Part shown: positions 1-41,316 of the stretch, one piece after another | Layout of the letters: the number at the start of each line of letters is the position of its first letter | Numbering within the stretch: position 1 is the stretch's first letter | Made by a program: the position numbers and the translations under genes | Virus record (IMG/VR): IMGVR_UViG_3300045988_047412 | Location: 1-41,316 of that record | Reading direction: 5' to 3' (one strand) | Length of the DNA: 41,316 bases | Source of the DNA: a virus | The notes under the pieces: model-generated | The model's input: only the letters and a program-made list of their open reading frames with translations | Databases searched by the model: none | What the model was told of the DNA's origin: nothing

Positions 1-119
1 TGAATGGCTGTCCTCGCTTGGCTAAAACTCCAAAATATTATGCACAGTGAAACAGAGTAAAATGCTCTGTTTCACTGCTTTTTATGGAGGTGCTATACAT
101 AATTGATTTCTGTTCATAA
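1..119. repeat. Terminal direct repeat: 1..119 is identical to 41198..41316 (circular-contig overlap or terminal redundancy)
   Basis: Read directly: both copies run tgaatggctgtcc...gatttctgttcataa. Unique length is 41197 bp, and features that reach 41316 continue at position 120. Confidence 0.95.
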
Positions 120-147
120 TGTACCTTATGTGTTGAAGTGCATAAAT
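1..147 (+). mobile_element. Right end of the RIT element (continuation of 37892..41316 across the circular junction)
   Basis: Holds the last 25 nt of the third recombinase CDS (1..25), terminator hairpin 45..77, inverted-repeat module CATAATTGATTTCTGTTCATAAT 98..120 and CATAAAT 141..147. The methyltransferase frame resumes at 148. Confidence 0.7.
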
Positions 148-393
148 GACGTTTTCCCAGACCATATACCGAGGTCGCAGAAACTCACCTGTTCTCCCGC
201 TTGCCATGTCATGTTCTCTCATCTCCTTCACGACCCTGATCTGTTCCATGTATAGGCCGGAGCGCGCCCCGGCCAGCCCTGCCCGCTTTCCGGCAATAGA
301 AAGGTCCTGACACGGACTGCCGCCGATCACCACATCCACAACGGGGGCCTCCGCTCCATTGATCTTCGTTATGTCACCAAGATGGAGCATCAT
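148..393 (-). pseudogene. C5 DNA-cytosine methyltransferase, upstream segment (motif III GDI, motif IV GGSPCQDLS, motif VI WENV), interrupted after ENV by the RIT element
   Basis: ORF-track ORF 82..393: MMLHLGDITKING...VVIGGSPCQDLSIAGKRAG...RPRYMVWENV, then unrelated IYALQH... read-through into the element (82..147). RBS GGAGGTGGA; ATGA start/stop overlap with the upstream gene at 390-393. Confidence 0.85.
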
Positions 394-36351: not shown

Positions 36352-36725
36352 CACTTCACCTCCGGCGGTTCCGGCAGCGGCATCCACGCCAAAGCACGAG
36401 CATTTGTTCCATTGGCAACTTCACCGCCCCAGCTTCCATTGTTTTGATATCCGAGTGCGTAATTTACAAACATTCCATTAAAGTCTCCATAGCGGAAATA
36501 CTCACCCCAACACAGCACTTTCCGAAAATTCTCCGGCAGCCGCTCCTCCACCGGTATCCACCGGGGCAGCTGCGCCCGCAGCTTCTCGATCTCTTTCTCC
36601 TGCGCCTCAATCCGGTCGGCGGCTTCCGCCAGATCATCGCCCAAGGTAATGGGCGTTTCCCACTGGTTCCCCTCCGCCCATTCTGCGTGCTCACGCAGAG
36701 CATTTACGAGGTTTGTATCTCTCAT
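36351..36725 (-). CDS. DUF551-domain protein
   Basis: RWIPVEERLPENFRKVLCWG...ALAWMPLPEPP; ATGA overlap with the methyltransferase stop. Confidence 0.65.
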   Translation of the reverse strand: MRDTNLVNALREHAEWAEGNQWETPITLGDDLAEAADRIEAQEKEIEKLRAQLPRWIPVEERLPENFRKVLCWGEYFRYGDFNGMFVNYALGYQNNGSWGGEVANGTNARALAWMPLPEPPEVK

Positions 36726-37891
36726 AATTCATCCTTTCCGTATGGGAACAAAAAGCGCCCCATGTCTCCTGGTTTCTCTACCGTGCCGAACCGCCGTTTG
36801 GTCACTGCGATGGGAAACTCTTCAATCTCGCTGGCCCATAGGCACGTTCCGCGTCCGTTCAACTGCTCCCAGATCAGCGGGAAACCACCTATTCCATCGA
36901 ACAAACTTGCCATAGTCGCGTCCCGCTCGTAGTTGCCGCACAGCCGTTTCAACAGCCATTTCCACGGCGGCAGGGCGATGGAGTTGCCCAGTGCCTTATA
37001 CCGGGGGCTGTCCGCGTCCTTATGGCGCTTGCCCTTGCTGTCCGTCCACTCGCCCAAGTCGGTCCAGTGGTCAGGGAATCCCTGAAGCCGTTCGCACTCC
37101 AACGGGGTCAGACGGCGAACAACACGGTTCTGCACCGGGTATGTCTCCGAATCCTCCCGGAAATCGCAGTTTGCTTTTGCCTTTAGCGTGTGTGCGATAT
37201 CCGGTACAGCCGCTCCGCATACCAGCATATCGTTATAGGCATCCTGCCCATTATAGCTCCCTGCGTGTGCTCCGGGCGATAAAGTCCCGGTGGTTTTCTG
37301 GTACGTCAGCGGGATTTGGTTGCCGCCGGTTCCCATACGGGCTTGCAGACTGGGAGCTACCTCACCGCAGTCTCGGATGACATCGCAGGCGTGGCTCATA
37401 TCCAGAATGGCGCACGGCACATGGGCGTTGGCGTTCAGCGTGTGACAGGGTTTCCCAAAATCAGGAATACTCCCATTCTGCTTGCTGGTGATCTGCGTAG
37501 TATCAAACTCCGTCGCATCTCCCCGGATTCGGACTGCGTAAGCAGCACCGCTTTCAGCACTGGCGGCAAGGCTTTCCCCCGCCGCTCCGCTCTCCGCAGG
37601 ATACCCTGACATGCTTTGCCGCTCAAACAATATTTCCCATGCGGTGTCGCCTCCAAAATCTGCGACAAGCGCGATTCTACGGCGACGTTGGGGGACTCCC
37701 CAGTGTTGCGCATCGAGCACTCGCCACGCAACGCTCCATCGTCCTCCCATTTCATCGTGGTATCCCCCCCAGGTGTTCCAACCTTTTTCAGGCACTTCAA
37801 TATCGGGGGCTTCCGGCTCTGCGACCCGGATGGCTTCTTCGAGGACGGCCGCAAAGTCTTTTCCTCCGTTGCTTGAGAAGGCTCCGGGAAC
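36722..37891 (-). pseudogene. C5 DNA-cytosine methyltransferase, downstream segment (motif VI remainder, VIII, TRD, IX, X, then motifs I and II at the C-terminus)
   Basis: ORF 36722..37909. From codon 37891: VPGAFSSNGG, GVPQRRRRIALVA, RRLTPLECERLQGFP, YKALGNSIALP, then in frame MASLFDGIGGF and WASEIEEF. The first 6 codons of the tracked ORF (37892..37909) are RIT-end sequence. Confidence 0.85.
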
Positions 37892-38018
37892 ATTATGAGT
37901 TGTAAGCAATTATGAAAAGACCTCCTTCCAAAATATTGAAATTTCTTTGAGAATTAAAAAGATGCTGTGCATAATTTCCCTTTATACTGTGAGCATCACA
38001 ATATAAAGGAGGCAAACT

Positions 38019-39251
38019 ATGCACAGCAGAAAGACAGTTCCAATCCCTGACTTGATGAGCGCAGCAAATATGGAGTTGATCCGTCTGGACTTCAAATCGT
38101 CAACCCTCAGTCGGCATAGCAAGGAGTTCCGTAGCTTCTCCAATTATTGCAGAGAAAACGAGATTACCGCTTATGACGCAGAAACCGGACCACAATACTT
38201 CCAACACTGTTATGGTTTGGACATCGGTAACTCCACCGCAAAACTGACCAAGCAACAACTGGACACACGCTGTTCGATTCGTTTTTTGGATGACATCTTT
38301 CAATTTGGGTATGCACTGCGATACAGCCACCATGACTACACAGTGCCACGGCAATATGTCGATTTACTGGAAGAATACCTTGCATGGTGCCACAGAAATA
38401 ATAGTTCTGATGGTACTATCCGTGTCAAGCGGACAAAGATACGGCAATTTTTTTGCTTTTTGGATGGGCGCGGAATAGAACTTTCAGATTTAACCGCTGC
38501 AGAAATTTCGGACTTCATGACCACCCTGTGCCGCTACCATCGTGCAACTATCCATGTATTCAGCAGCGTTTTACGTGATTTCTTCCGCTATCTCCATGAA
38601 AATGGGATATTGGACGATGACTTATCTTCAAGTGTTCCAAGGCCAAAGATCTACGTTGAAGAAAATATCCCCGAAACGTGGGCCCCAGAGGAAGTACGAC
38701 AATTATTGTCCGTTATTGACCGCAGCAATGCGATTGGAAAAAGAGATTACGCAATGCTTCTGCTTGCTATTCTGCTGGGCATGAGGGCTGGAGACATCTG
38801 TGCATTGAAATTCAAAAATCTGGACTGGCACCAGAAACTGATCACCTATACACAGCAAAAAACGCAAAAGGTCAATACACTGCCTCTGCTCCCTGTAATT
38901 GGAGATGCCATCATTGACTATCTGAAAAATGGGCGGTTGGATTCTGACTGTGATAATGTGTTTATCCGCCATATCCATCCTTACGGAGAATTCCAGTCCA
39001 GCACAACTCTTTCCGAAAACCTCAAGCGATATATGAAATATGCAGGTATGACAGTAAAGAAGCGCAAAGCAGCCCATTCACTGCGTCATACTCTGGCAAG
39101 CAGCCTCTTGTATGATGGTACACCGCTTATGACGATCTCCAACATCCTTGGGCACAACAGCCCAAAAACGACCTCCGTATATACCAAAGTAGACCTTCCG
39201 GCCTTGCGGAAATGTGCATTATCTTATGGAGAACGGAGGGAATTGATATGA
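38019..39251 (+). CDS. Tyrosine recombinase, first of trio (RitA-like)
   Basis: 410 aa; AHSLRHTLASSLL...ILGHNSPKTTSVYTKVD; RBS AAAGGAGG. Confidence 0.85.
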   Translation: MHSRKTVPIPDLMSAANMELIRLDFKSSTLSRHSKEFRSFSNYCRENEITAYDAETGPQYFQHCYGLDIGNSTAKLTKQQLDTRCSIRFLDDIFQFGYALRYSHHDYTVPRQYVDLLEEYLAWCHRNNSSDGTIRVKRTKIRQFFCFLDGRGIELSDLTAAEISDFMTTLCRYHRATIHVFSSVLRDFFRYLHENGILDDDLSSSVPRPKIYVEENIPETWAPEEVRQLLSVIDRSNAIGKRDYAMLLLAILLGMRAGDICALKFKNLDWHQKLITYTQQKTQKVNTLPLLPVIGDAIIDYLKNGRLDSDCDNVFIRHIHPYGEFQSSTTLSENLKRYMKYAGMTVKKRKAAHSLRHTLASSLLYDGTPLMTISNILGHNSPKTTSVYTKVDLPALRKCALSYGERRELI

Positions 39252-40222
39252 CTTCAAAAATGTTGTTGGAGCAGTATATGGCGGAACGTCATGCTCTTGG
39301 GTTCAGCCTGAAAACGGATGAGGGTTGTATCCGGCGCTTCCTCCAGGACTTTGCTGAGCCCGATGATGGAGAGATTTCGTTTACAAAAGAATATGTTTTA
39401 GACCATATTGGAAACAGACGGAACCTGCAAACCAATACCATCCTCAGAGATGTCAGCGCAATCAATGGATTTCTCGATTTTGTGATCCGCAAAGGCTATA
39501 CAGCATATAAGATCCCTCCTAAATCTCTCCCGAAAGAAAACCGCAATTTTAGAGCCTATATTTTTACGGACGACGAGATTGAGCGGATGCTGACTGCAGC
39601 GGATCATGTGCCATTTACGGAGCAGAACCCTGCACGAAAATACCAGATTCCTGTTATGTTCCGAATCTTATTCAACTGCGGATTGCGTACTTCTGAATTG
39701 CTTAAACTGCGCATGTGCGATGTAAACCTCAAAGGAAATGTGTTTACCATTTTGGATACGAAATTTCACAAAAACCGCTTGGTGCCATTCTCTGATACAG
39801 TTGCAGAATCCTTGACTCAATATCTGGAAATGTCCCCTCCAAAATCTACAGATTCCTTGCTTTTTCCAAGTTTGAACCCACGCAGCAACGGCGGAAGATA
39901 CGGGAACAGTTGGCTGCAAGCTCAATTTCGCCAGCTCCTCAGAACGGCGGGTATTCCTTACAATGGTTCAGGAAAAGGCCCTCGGCCTCATGATATCCGC
40001 CACACATTTGCGGTACACTGTCTTAACAACTGGGTCCTTTCGGGTGAAGATCTTACCGCTGCGCTACCCGTACTTTCACGGTATCTTGGACATAATGGAC
40101 TGACCGGCACGCAAAAATATCTTCAATTGACGGCGCAAATGTACCCAGATATTGTTGCCAAATTAGAAGTGCAATTTGGTGGTCTCATTCCCCAGATGGA
40201 GGTGTCCAATGAAAGCATCTGA
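39248..40222 (+). CDS. Tyrosine recombinase, second of trio (RitB-like)
   Basis: 324 aa from MTSKMLLEQY; ATGA overlap with the first gene; PHDIRHTFAVHCL...YLGHNGLTGTQKYLQLT. Confidence 0.85.
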   Translation: MTSKMLLEQYMAERHALGFSLKTDEGCIRRFLQDFAEPDDGEISFTKEYVLDHIGNRRNLQTNTILRDVSAINGFLDFVIRKGYTAYKIPPKSLPKENRNFRAYIFTDDEIERMLTAADHVPFTEQNPARKYQIPVMFRILFNCGLRTSELLKLRMCDVNLKGNVFTILDTKFHKNRLVPFSDTVAESLTQYLEMSPPKSTDSLLFPSLNPRSNGGRYGNSWLQAQFRQLLRTAGIPYNGSGKGPRPHDIRHTFAVHCLNNWVLSGEDLTAALPVLSRYLGHNGLTGTQKYLQLTAQMYPDIVAKLEVQFGGLIPQMEVSNESI

Positions 40223-41222
40223 CTTCTCCAAATTTTTGACGCAGTACCTTACACACTATCTGCCCGTCCAGAGAAATCTGAGCAGCAATACAATTCGTTC
40301 CTACCGGGATACGTTTAAACTCCTCCTGATTTTTTGCAGAGACGAGAAAGGCTTTAATATTGCAAAGCTGAATCTGTCCAAGTTGGACAAAAAGTGTATA
40401 GAGGACTTCCTTCTGTGGCTGACTAATACCAGAGGTTCTTCCCCATCTACTTACAACCAGCGCCTTTGCGCCATTCACGCTTTCTTTGATTATGTTATGA
40501 CCGAAGAACCGACGTATATGGAGCAGTGCATTTTAATCCTCAAAATTCCAAGCATGGTATCTCCCGACCCGCCCGCGCAGTACTTAACGCCAGAAAATTT
40601 GAAACATTTATTGTCTATGCCGGATACCTCTACTCCTAAAGGACGGAGGCATCTTGTCTTGCTAACTGTTTTGTATGATACAGCAGCTCGTGTTAGTGAA
40701 CTTGCGGATATTTGTATGCGGGATGTGCGATTAGATTTCCCAGCAGTTATTACTCTGCATGGAAAAGGCGGGAAGATTCGTACAGTGCCTCTCATGAAAC
40801 CGACTACTGAATTGTTACGTAGTTACCTTGAGGAAAACCACATTGATTTGCGACGAAACCCAGATATGCCCCTGTTTTGGAATGGAAGCAGACACAAACT
40901 GACCCGTTCTGGAATTACATACATCGTCCAGAAATATGCAGATATGGCACGGGAAACTGCCTCTGGGATGCCTACCAAAATCTCGCCTCATATTTTTCGC
41001 CATACGAAAGCCATGCATATGGTACAGGCCAATGTTAATCCGGTCTTTATTAAAGATTATCTGGGACACGCCGACATCTCTACCACTGAGGTCTATGCCA
41101 GAGCAGACAATGAAGCCAAGCGAGCTGCTTTGGAGAAGGCTACAGCCCATCTTGATCTACCGAAAGCATCTCAGTGGGAACAGGATGCTGAGTTGATTGA
41201 ATGGCTGTCCTCGCTTGGCTAA
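40209..41222 (+). CDS. Tyrosine recombinase, third of trio (RitC-like)
   Basis: 337 aa from MKASDFSKFL; RBS GGAGGTG; 14-nt overlap with the second gene; PHIFRHTKAMHMV...YLGHADISTTEVYARAD. Confidence 0.85.
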   Translation: MKASDFSKFLTQYLTHYLPVQRNLSSNTIRSYRDTFKLLLIFCRDEKGFNIAKLNLSKLDKKCIEDFLLWLTNTRGSSPSTYNQRLCAIHAFFDYVMTEEPTYMEQCILILKIPSMVSPDPPAQYLTPENLKHLLSMPDTSTPKGRRHLVLLTVLYDTAARVSELADICMRDVRLDFPAVITLHGKGGKIRTVPLMKPTTELLRSYLEENHIDLRRNPDMPLFWNGSRHKLTRSGITYIVQKYADMARETASGMPTKISPHIFRHTKAMHMVQANVNPVFIKDYLGHADISTTEVYARADNEAKRAALEKATAHLDLPKASQWEQDAELIEWLSSLG

Positions 41223-41241
41223 AACTCCAAAATATTATGCA

Positions 41242-41281
41242 CAGTGAAACAGAGTAAAATGCTCTGTTTCACTGCTTTTTA
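41242..41281 (+). terminator. Intrinsic terminator of the recombinase trio
   Basis: CAGTGAAACAGAG-taaaatg-CTCTGTTTCACTG (perfect 13-bp stem) followed by CTTTTTAT. Confidence 0.8.
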
Positions 41282-41316
41282 TGGAGGTGCTATACATAAT
41301 TGATTTCTGTTCATAA

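Follow-up and report, generated by a model that had tools for sequence, protein, structure and literature searches.

Circular permutation of cytosine-5 DNA methyltransferases (C5-MTases) is an already known phenomenon. Natural examples are M.BssHII, M.Alw26I, M2.Eco31I, M.Esp3I, M2.BsaI and 22 more enzymes from REBASE, and all those known in 2018 have their break in the variable region (PMC5944983). In addition, 21 permutants of M.MpeI and M.SssI were engineered by Albert et al. (2018, PLoS One; PMC5944983). By far the most active of these were of Type B, with the N-terminus between motifs II and III (cp62M.MpeI and cp58M.SssI), and the activity of cp62M.MpeI resembled that of the wild type (PMC5944983). 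Type B was reported to be absent from natural enzymes, for which weaker binding of S-adenosylmethionine (AdoMet) was proposed as a reason (PMC5944983). Here, we analyze a phage-borne C5-MTase gene with this motif order, which lies on the minus strand of the IMG/VR virus record IMGVR_UViG_3300045988_047412 (positions 1 to 41,316; this whole stretch is referred to as the window) and is split there by a RIT element.

C5-MTases also tolerate splitting: the parts complement efficiently when separated between VIII and the target-recognition domain (TRD) or between II and III, and fragments split between II and III complemented best (PMC5944983). Directed evolution of M.HaeIII by duplication and truncation yielded active enzymes which start between II and IV and often carry redundant peptides (PMC5944983).

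Motif order of the window gene and its conservation

Without the RIT element, the MTase open reading frame (ORF) consists of 393..152 joined to 37894..36722 (1413 nt, 470 aa). This rejoined ORF differs from the uninterrupted gene of locus L001 by only two bases, both synonymous, indicating that the conceptual 470-aa product is a real protein and that the RIT insertion is very recent. The order of motifs in the product is III-IV-VI-VIII-TRD-IX-X-I-II. FDGIGG, ASEIEE, HLGDI, GGSPCQ, WENV, QRRRR and LGNS occur once each and are invariant or nearly so in A1, a 40-sequence alignment in which members from outside the subclade of the window protein share only 43-57% identity with it. The single occurrence of every m5C motif had been pointed out in the initial annotation and now has window coordinates (Table 1).

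Profile and structure-based alignments agree with this order. The 470-aa product passes the family cut-off of Pfam PF00145 with 128.4 bits (cut-off 22) in three stretches. Residues 4-100 fall on profile positions 46-129 and the last 76 aa alone on positions 2-44 (E 1.6e-4, 21.7 bits), so that the C-terminal segment corresponds to the I-II unit; an alignment contradicting this had been named with the annotation as a possible refutation. In a phmmer search against the PDB, residues 6-60 matched M.HhaI 59-113 (motifs III-IV), 134-158 matched 146-170 (VIII), 331-357 matched 264-289 (IX) and 409-454 matched 15-56 (I-II). Furthermore, the C-terminal piece aligned with residues 3-55 of a canonical relative (E 2e-14). 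The PDB alignment and the canonical relatives place the N-terminus of the window protein between II and III and join X to I, which defines Type B. The protein is not of Type H, with IX-X ahead of I-VIII, as its IX-X come after VIII and the TRD; neither is it of the DRM type, with VI-X ahead of I-V, as III-IV-VI are contiguous at its N-terminus. The permutation deduced earlier from the letters, in which I-II follow X in one continuous frame and motif III marks the new termini, is thus borne out by the hidden Markov model, the PDB alignment and the canonical relatives alike. The proposed difference from the M.BssHII topology holds as well, given the variable-region break of all natural permutants known in 2018 (PMC5944983). 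We conclude, with a probability of roughly 0.85, that the gene encodes a natural circularly permuted C5-MTase of Type B which most likely arose from a fused tandem and whose window copy was inactivated by the RIT element.

The engineered Type B enzymes share the topology of the window family in both respects, the N-terminus between II and III and the junction of X to I. They are laboratory constructs of CG-specific Mollicutes enzymes, whereas the window family is natural and phage-borne, has an unrelated specificity region and, unlike the constructs, retains a short redundant relic of motif III in some members. Type H enzymes (the five named above) are also natural and have X fused to I, but in these IX-X precede I-VIII owing to the break in the variable region, while the break of the window family lies between II and III. 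Plant DRM2, a eukaryotic enzyme broken between motifs V and VI (VI-X precede I-V), is another natural permuted C5-MTase, and DRM2 chains matched motif IV of the query at their C-terminal end in the phmmer search. The Bacillus phages SPR, phi3T, rho11s and SPbeta encode multispecific orphan C5-MTases with tandem recognition modules in the variable region. They resemble the relatives described here in being phage-borne and perhaps also in having such modules, but their motif order is canonical. No report of a natural Type B permutant was found in the literature, the coverage of which was partial (most subscription journals and REBASE lay outside), and the window family is this missing natural Type B. 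It answers the question raised by Albert et al. (PMC5944983), as the II/III break is used in nature, and their AdoMet-affinity hypothesis becomes testable on natural proteins with close canonical relatives (63-65% identity).

The permuted gene is widespread in gut phages. The 470-aa protein has full-length matches of 100% identity in P0001 and some ten further database entries; uninterrupted identical copies are found on contigs of up to 38.9 kb, and the L001 gene (5001-6413) is internal to a linear contig. A whole-protein search returned many full-length relatives of 470-730 aa, which have the N-terminus M-x-HLGDITKI and the C-terminal X-I-II fusion in common and differ chiefly in the length between VIII and IX. 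Searching 1.84 billion 50%-identity representatives with the IX-X-linker-I-II junction gave 783 representatives at E<=1e-30. At least 150 cluster representatives carry the X-to-I-II fusion (150 of the 150 matches listed are a single stretch ending at the protein C-terminus), and 122 of 270 fetched proteins are full length with IV<X<I, nearly all of them beginning with M-x-HLGDITKI. Among species-representative bacterial genomes, the X-I-II junction is contiguous in 140 loci, mostly in metagenome-assembled genomes of gut Clostridia (Oscillospiraceae, Christensenellales, Lachnospiraceae, Ruminococcaceae), and the isolates Faecalibacterium tardum CLA-AA-H175 and Gemmiger sp. An87 have it, too. 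IMG/VR holds more than 595 stretches with the fusion. The cultured Faecalibacterium phage FP_Toutatis and phage Lelie carry a version of about 44% identity, and the in-frame 470-aa form of this type (P0271) belongs to a cluster of 3282 member sequences. What had escaped the initial annotation is that the gene represents a large family instead of a local oddity, that canonical enzymes have its start Met as a conserved internal residue, and that the same topology had been engineered in fully active form (PMC5944983). Existing annotations present family members as plain methyltransferases, split them into two genes or call them hypothetical proteins, and both motif-order-aware annotation and the REBASE classification would gain from their recognition.

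This breadth bears on the possibility that two genes were misread as one, the stop between X and MASLFDGIGG having been lost by a recent point mutation, or that the arrangement is an artefact of circularisation. Apart from the position of the window gene across the contig junction, nothing speaks for either. No stop between motifs X and I was present in the 261 proteins and 80 kept genome loci examined; every one of them reads through the junction, and the two-gene locus that had been named as a possible counter-example was not found. Moreover, intact genes lie in the middle of linear contigs, and opening a circle at a single point cannot restore the order I-X. We consider this explanation practically negligible, and on the latter two grounds we also rejected a prophage/attP split-and-reconstitute reading.

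The relocated module is under selection at the protein level. In A1, the stretch S410-F449 (I-II) contains 25 invariant columns, which is comparable to motif IV, and the entropy at 4-fold synonymous sites amounts to 1.62 bits in IX-X-I-II, the same level as in III-IV (1.68 bits). Since the protein columns of I-II are fixed while 4-fold sites vary freely, conservation acts on the protein, i.e. by purifying selection. The tail that follows ...RFG varies, and the proteins of most clusters end within 1-8 residues of it. The gene is also well embedded in its surroundings: the start at 393 (ATGATG) is preceded by GGAGGTGG, the start ATG shares an ATGA overlap with the TGA stop of the upstream ORF, and the stop (36724..36722) shares another with the ATG of the next gene. 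The coupling to both neighbours and the ribosome-binding site (RBS) at the new start, as described initially, are hence both seen.

These data can be held against the view of the locus as pseudogene debris, in which a 5'-truncated MTase gene happens to run in frame into what is left of the 5' end of a second, deleted MTase gene, the whole being inactive and unselected. Debris would fit a window gene already broken by the RIT element, the many frameshifted relatives and a C-terminal tail that resembles a decaying remnant. However, the same start and fusion are kept in hundreds of divergent relatives, including those of cultured phages, few parts of the protein are as conserved as I-II despite saturation of its synonymous sites, a good RBS precedes the ORF, which is linked to its neighbours by coupling, and engineered enzymes of this topology are fully active (PMC5944983). 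Debris is very improbable, and the earlier verdict of selection rather than debris is sustained by a very large conserved family with a nearly invariant I-II module and variable 4-fold sites.

How the permuted enzyme would work can be outlined from the C5-MTase fold, in which the AdoMet pocket is built from motifs I-III and X, the native termini lie next to each other in the large domain and the II-III loop lies on the surface. The polypeptide starts with motif III, which corresponds to strand beta3 of the Rossmann-like, AdoMet-binding fold, runs through the catalytic motifs IV-VIII, the TRD and IX-X, and passes unbroken from X into I-II (beta1, Gly loop, beta2), which is N-terminal in canonical enzymes. 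The C-terminal beta1-helix-beta2 unit is predicted to insert beside the N-terminal beta3, restoring the cofactor pocket. As the native termini are adjacent and the II-III surface loop is tolerant, the relocated I-II should be able to rejoin the same sheet. Intact relatives would most likely act as orphan methyltransferases that methylate the phage DNA and thereby evade host restriction; folding, enzymatic activity and this anti-restriction role are predictions. An AlphaFold2 model (470 aa, 40-sequence alignment) reached a mean predicted local distance difference test score of 47, with about 20 in the target-recognition region and 51-72 in I-II, for which the expected strand-helix-strand succession was predicted.

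Several points weigh against the interpretation as a functional Type B enzyme. The window copy of the gene is disrupted, and about 40% of the genomic loci are frameshifted at poly-G tracts. The C-terminal piece by itself scores slightly below the Pfam gathering cut-off (21.7 versus 22 bits). The low-confidence AlphaFold2 model is poor and gives no usable evidence that I-II packs into the sheet, and methyl transfer by any family member is a prediction from sequence.

Canonical relatives and the probable path to the permuted gene

Annotated phage genomes were searched with a de-permuted query, in which I-II was placed ahead of III-VI. This resulted in single-piece full-length matches, the best being MT839819 (65%) and MT839299 (57%). 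Next came matches in phages of Oscillospirales, Ruminococcus and Terrisporobacter and in Streptococcus Javan phages. MT839819 and MT839299 are collinear with the de-permuted sequence and 65% identical over I-II and 63% over III-VIII. The similar identity of both parts to the same canonical relatives indicates that they stem from one lineage. These relatives have the normal motif order and read ...WASEIE.FP..VT.KRFPxM(L/K)H(V/M/Y)GDITK... across the break. Because the permuted ORF starts precisely at the Met of RFPxM, which is already conserved inside the canonical enzymes, no new start codon was needed for it.

Both ends of the relocated piece can be compared with the canonical enzymes. The window tail RRFG-TVEKP-GDM-GRF aligns residue by residue with the canonical KRFP-SMLHV-GDI-TKL (RF-x6-GD in both), which identifies the tail as a decaying copy of motif III, as expected from a second gene copy truncated at this point. 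In other subclades, the relic reads GDIQKYL, GDLYKFL or GDWWKF, or is fully lost. At the X-I junction, ...DAT-M-ASLFDG aligns with canonical M-P-T-L-G-S-L-F-D-G; here, the junction Met stands opposite a Leu, the canonical initiator lies 3-6 residues upstream, and 40 of 261 family members have Leu at the position. The junction Met is thus probably not the old initiator, and the claim that it was retained from a normal enzyme start is not supported. The DNA likeness between GGTGACAT and GGAGACAT, which had been noted at the two termini, is what coding for G-D-(I/M) yields, and we rejected it as a recombination footprint and gave it no weight.

The permuted topology most likely arose by duplication, fusion and truncation. 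Two MTase copies would have been fused head-to-tail in frame; copy 1 would then have been cut at its 5' end up to the pre-existing internal Met (canonical ...RFPxM-x-H-x-GDI...), and copy 2 at its 3' end just past motif II, leaving the decaying GDM relic in the window subclade. This origin, suggested in the initial annotation, is made plausible by the RF-x6-GD relic, by the 65%/63% identity to the same canonical relatives and by a sister topology described below. A candidate tandem C5-C5 precursor pair beside canonical relatives was rejected, as the genes annotated "DNA methyltransferase" that lie upstream in L008 and L094 encode ParB-N6/N4 enzymes and not C5 ones. The directed-evolution permutants of M.HaeIII were also obtained via duplication, fusion and truncation, and their redundant peptides are like the GDM relic of the window protein. 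One group of their active forms has its start between II and III, inside motif III itself or between III and IV, and these permutants are products of experimental evolution and not a natural family. That study is reportedly the work of Peisajovich, Rockah and Tawfik from 2006. With its re-used internal Met, the decaying motif III relic and a sister topology having the same fusion, the window family offers a natural test case for permutation by duplication.

The sister topology was observed in L004 (1695-2876; Logan SRR30827678) and L097 (2692-3930; IMGVR_UViG_2061766007_000057), where the ORF order is TRD-IX-X-I-II-III-IV-VI-VIII. The two come from independent contigs and are 89% identical over a 174-aa query. 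Their X-to-I linker (...AQYDYDPTMASLFDGIGGF) is the same as in the Type B family, and II and III are contiguous (...FPYM.H.GDITKI). One clade therefore holds canonical, Type B and Type-H-like (M.BssHII-like) genes, and both permuted forms have one X-to-I fusion. The shared fusion is the pattern expected of a fused tandem intermediate that was cut at different points, and may reflect one; equally, a second duplication starting from Type B may account for it.

An embedded reading frame and poly-G tracts

The MTase gene overlaps a long ORF in the +1 frame, termed ORF B. It is open for about 140-175 codons, from just past the K-E-M-R codons (between IV and VI) to about 55 codons beyond VIII. In the window, the first 20 codons lie at 212..153 and the RIT element splits codon 21 (A at 152, TG at 37892..37891), so that ORF B is interrupted as well, whereas it is intact in L001. 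ORF B is open in almost all loci examined (also in L007-L009 and L010-L094), except where a poly-G frameshift shortens it, and its ATG lies 2-6 codons past an upstream stop in most loci, with AAGGAG 8-10 nt upstream in many. It is also open in canonical relatives, including an AT-rich Streptococcus phage (Javan422), in which the third frame is open for only 17 codons. The conserved translation reads ...QVSLFD.D.WSGK.SPE.S..T.EKTS...PLFL.L...DASWE.DGALLGEYSM.SFGESP...ES.LSQILE..PHPKY.LSAKACQGIL.RA.RRGK.LP..L..AL.

Several measures point to coding constraint on this frame. If the MTase frame is shuffled synonymously, about 65 open codons are expected versus the 151 observed, and the 4-fold entropy of the MTase frame drops from about 1.65 bits to 0.99 and 0.75 bits within the overlap. 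Frame B has a pairwise identity of 49%, compared with 54% for the MTase frame and 38% for the third frame (6.7 stops). About 900 database proteins are stand-alone calls of ORF B, and in L090 and L092 the gene callers chose it over the intact MTase ORF. ORF B had no match in Pfam or NCBIfam and none in the PDB by sequence or profile; a match to PHROG 16143 was weak (E about 1e-3), and an AlphaFold2 model was mostly disordered and confident only for a C-terminal helical hairpin. Taken together, ORF B is a strong candidate for an overprinted gene.

A related arrangement occurs in the betaproteobacterial Curvibacter phage PCA1 (L096, OP588919). In this canonical-order relative, one frame encodes I-VI, while another begins with a frame-B-like N-terminus that is fused to VII-VIII; past motif VIII, the +1 frame reads ...RYYLSQKACAGILARAERRGG.VPEEL.... 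Phages well outside those of Clostridia may accordingly have the embedded frame, too.

Frameshifts in the family coincide with two G tracts. At the first site, between VI and VIII, the window carries an in-frame G7 (Table 1), and 14 of 14 loci classed as shifted between VI and VIII have G8-G14 there. Tracts were noted in L005 (G9), L006 (G14), L095 (G12) and many of L010-L089. Two further cultured-phage records that were not classified are also shifted at this site, phage Saumur with G12 and Curvibacter phage PCA1 with only G4. Pairs of the same context differ by a single G, such as G8 in frame versus G9 out of frame. A second tract of G7-G11, located about 165-190 nt past VIII at the start of the first recognition module, explains most loci in which frame B runs into TRD-IX-X-I-II, and all four combinations of the two poly-G switches were seen. 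As a result of the frameshifts, many copies are either off or expressed in a more complex way than as one ORF, and the genes of FP_Toutatis, Lelie and Saumur are annotated as two coding sequences, as a hypothetical protein or as a truncated coding sequence starting inside frame B. The length differences suggest phase variation, with fixed mutations or homopolymer assembly errors as alternatives.

The frameshifted forms raise the possibility that the permuted protein is real and selected but not a self-contained monomer, acting either as a domain-swapped dimer or as two polypeptides produced via poly-G and frame B, similar to M.AquI. Separate ORFs for III-VIII and for B-TRD-IX-X-I-II do recur (about 17 loci), the four switch combinations exist, the structure model is of low confidence, and C5-MTases split at VIII/TRD or II/III complement well (PMC5944983). 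The split M.AquI (alpha and beta subunits) is divided at the same VIII/TRD boundary as the frame-shifted family variants, whereas the window gene and most relatives are single ORFs. Single in-frame ORFs are present in most loci (36 of about 78) and in the most populated clusters, the 18 aa of the X-I linker correspond to the natural termini, which known structures show side by side, and the engineered Type B enzymes are active as monomers (PMC5944983). We consider an assembly of this kind unlikely and prefer the self-contained Type B enzyme.

Neither an ORF embedded in a phage C5-MTase gene nor a poly-G-switched phage C5-MTase was found reported in the literature, again with partial coverage and most subscription journals outside. 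A tentative joint reading, whose chances we put somewhat short of even, would have two permutations derived from one fused-tandem intermediate, ORF B as a genuine overprinted gene (about 150 codons, under purifying selection, with its own Shine-Dalgarno sequence and ATG), and the two poly-G tracts flanking the second half of B as a phase-variable dual-coding switch with four product sets. If real, ORF B and the switches would add a rare long same-strand overlapping phage gene and a phase-variable phage methyltransferase.

The interrupted locus and variants of the family

A direct terminal repeat of 119 bp (1..119 = 41198..41316) indicates that the window is a circular assembly of about 41.2 kb, and the RIT element of about 3.45 kb, with three tyrosine recombinases, crosses its junction. 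The flanks of the gene equal L001 as far as 152 on one side and 37894 on the other and overlap by 2 nt (AA). On the left side, the element consequently supplies the last bases of the ENV codons, and after it the MTase frame resumes at 37894/37888 with PGAFSS. Insertion of the RIT element into the ENV codons, a very recent event, has thus inactivated the window copy. The range 36722-37891, initially assigned to the permuted gene, does lie within it but covers only the 3' part (Table 1).

Table 1. Positions of the permuted C5-MTase gene, ORF B and the RIT element in the window.
Feature	Position	Strand	Remark
5' part of the permuted C5-MTase gene, residues 1-81	152..393	-	same as L001 gene down to 152
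MTase start codons	ATG 393..391; second ATG 390..388	-	
N-terminal residues MMLHLGDI	393..370	-	
Motif III, HLGDI	384..370	-	
Motif IV, GGSPCQ	324..307	-	
Motif VI, WEN(V)	159..151	-	
ORF B start	152..212	-	ATG 212..210; AAGGAG 9 nt upstream, inside the MTase K-E-M-R codons
3' part of the permuted C5-MTase gene, residues ~82-470 and stop	36722..37894	-	VIII, target-recognition region, IX, X, linker, I, II, tail; same as L001 gene from 37894 to stop
ORF B 3' part	37435..37894	-	...MFPEPSQ...LSQILE...KACQGILRRAERRGKALP...
G7 homopolymer between VI and VIII	37764..37770	-	in frame; site where G8-G14 relatives are frameshifted
Motif VIII, QRRRR	37676..37690	-	aligned to M.HhaI 146-170
Motif IX, RRLTPLECERLQGFP	37117..37073	-	IX-X columns invariant in A1
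Motif X, YKALGNSIALP	37000..36968	-	IX-X region spans 36968..37117
X-to-I linker, PWKWLLKRLCGNYERDAT	36914..36967	-	18 aa; canonical C-terminal tail and natural N-terminal residues joined
Relocated AdoMet-binding module, motifs I-II	36815..36913	-	Pfam profile, M.HhaI and canonical-relative alignments; invariant in A1
Motif I, (M)ASLFDGIGGF	36913..36881	-	
Motif II, WASEIEEF	36838..36815	-	
C-terminal tail, PGDMGRFLFPYGKDEL, and stop	36722..36772	-	positional motif III relic, degenerate (GDM versus GDI)
PGDMGRF within the C-terminal tail	36772..36752	-	
RIT element	37895..41316	+	inserted in the ENV codons; crosses contig junction into 1..151
RIT tyrosine-recombinase ORFs (three)	38019-39251, 39212-40222, 40176-41222	+	
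Remaining RIT end	1..151	+	1..119 repeats 41198..41316 (assembly overlap)

The length of the relatives varies between about 426 and 800 aa as putative target-recognition modules are gained or lost, and the window enzyme is among the shortest versions. Recurring blocks gained or lost between relatives include GGGKGALVQTEKSGTL... and FDTTQITSKQNG.... Relatives with variable putative recognition modules (P0017, P0039, P0062, P0108, P0259 and others) recall the multispecific Bacillus phage methyltransferases. The 243-aa variant of L132 (2989-3717; IMG/VR) has III-IV followed by recognition modules, IX, X, I and II without VI-VIII and is probably a deletion derivative. Motif IV of a further Type B member, P0269 (734 aa), is interrupted by an intein-like stretch of about 350 aa (GGSP-CFPAGTLV...VVHN-CQNMS), whose +1 extein residue would be the catalytic Cys of PCQ.

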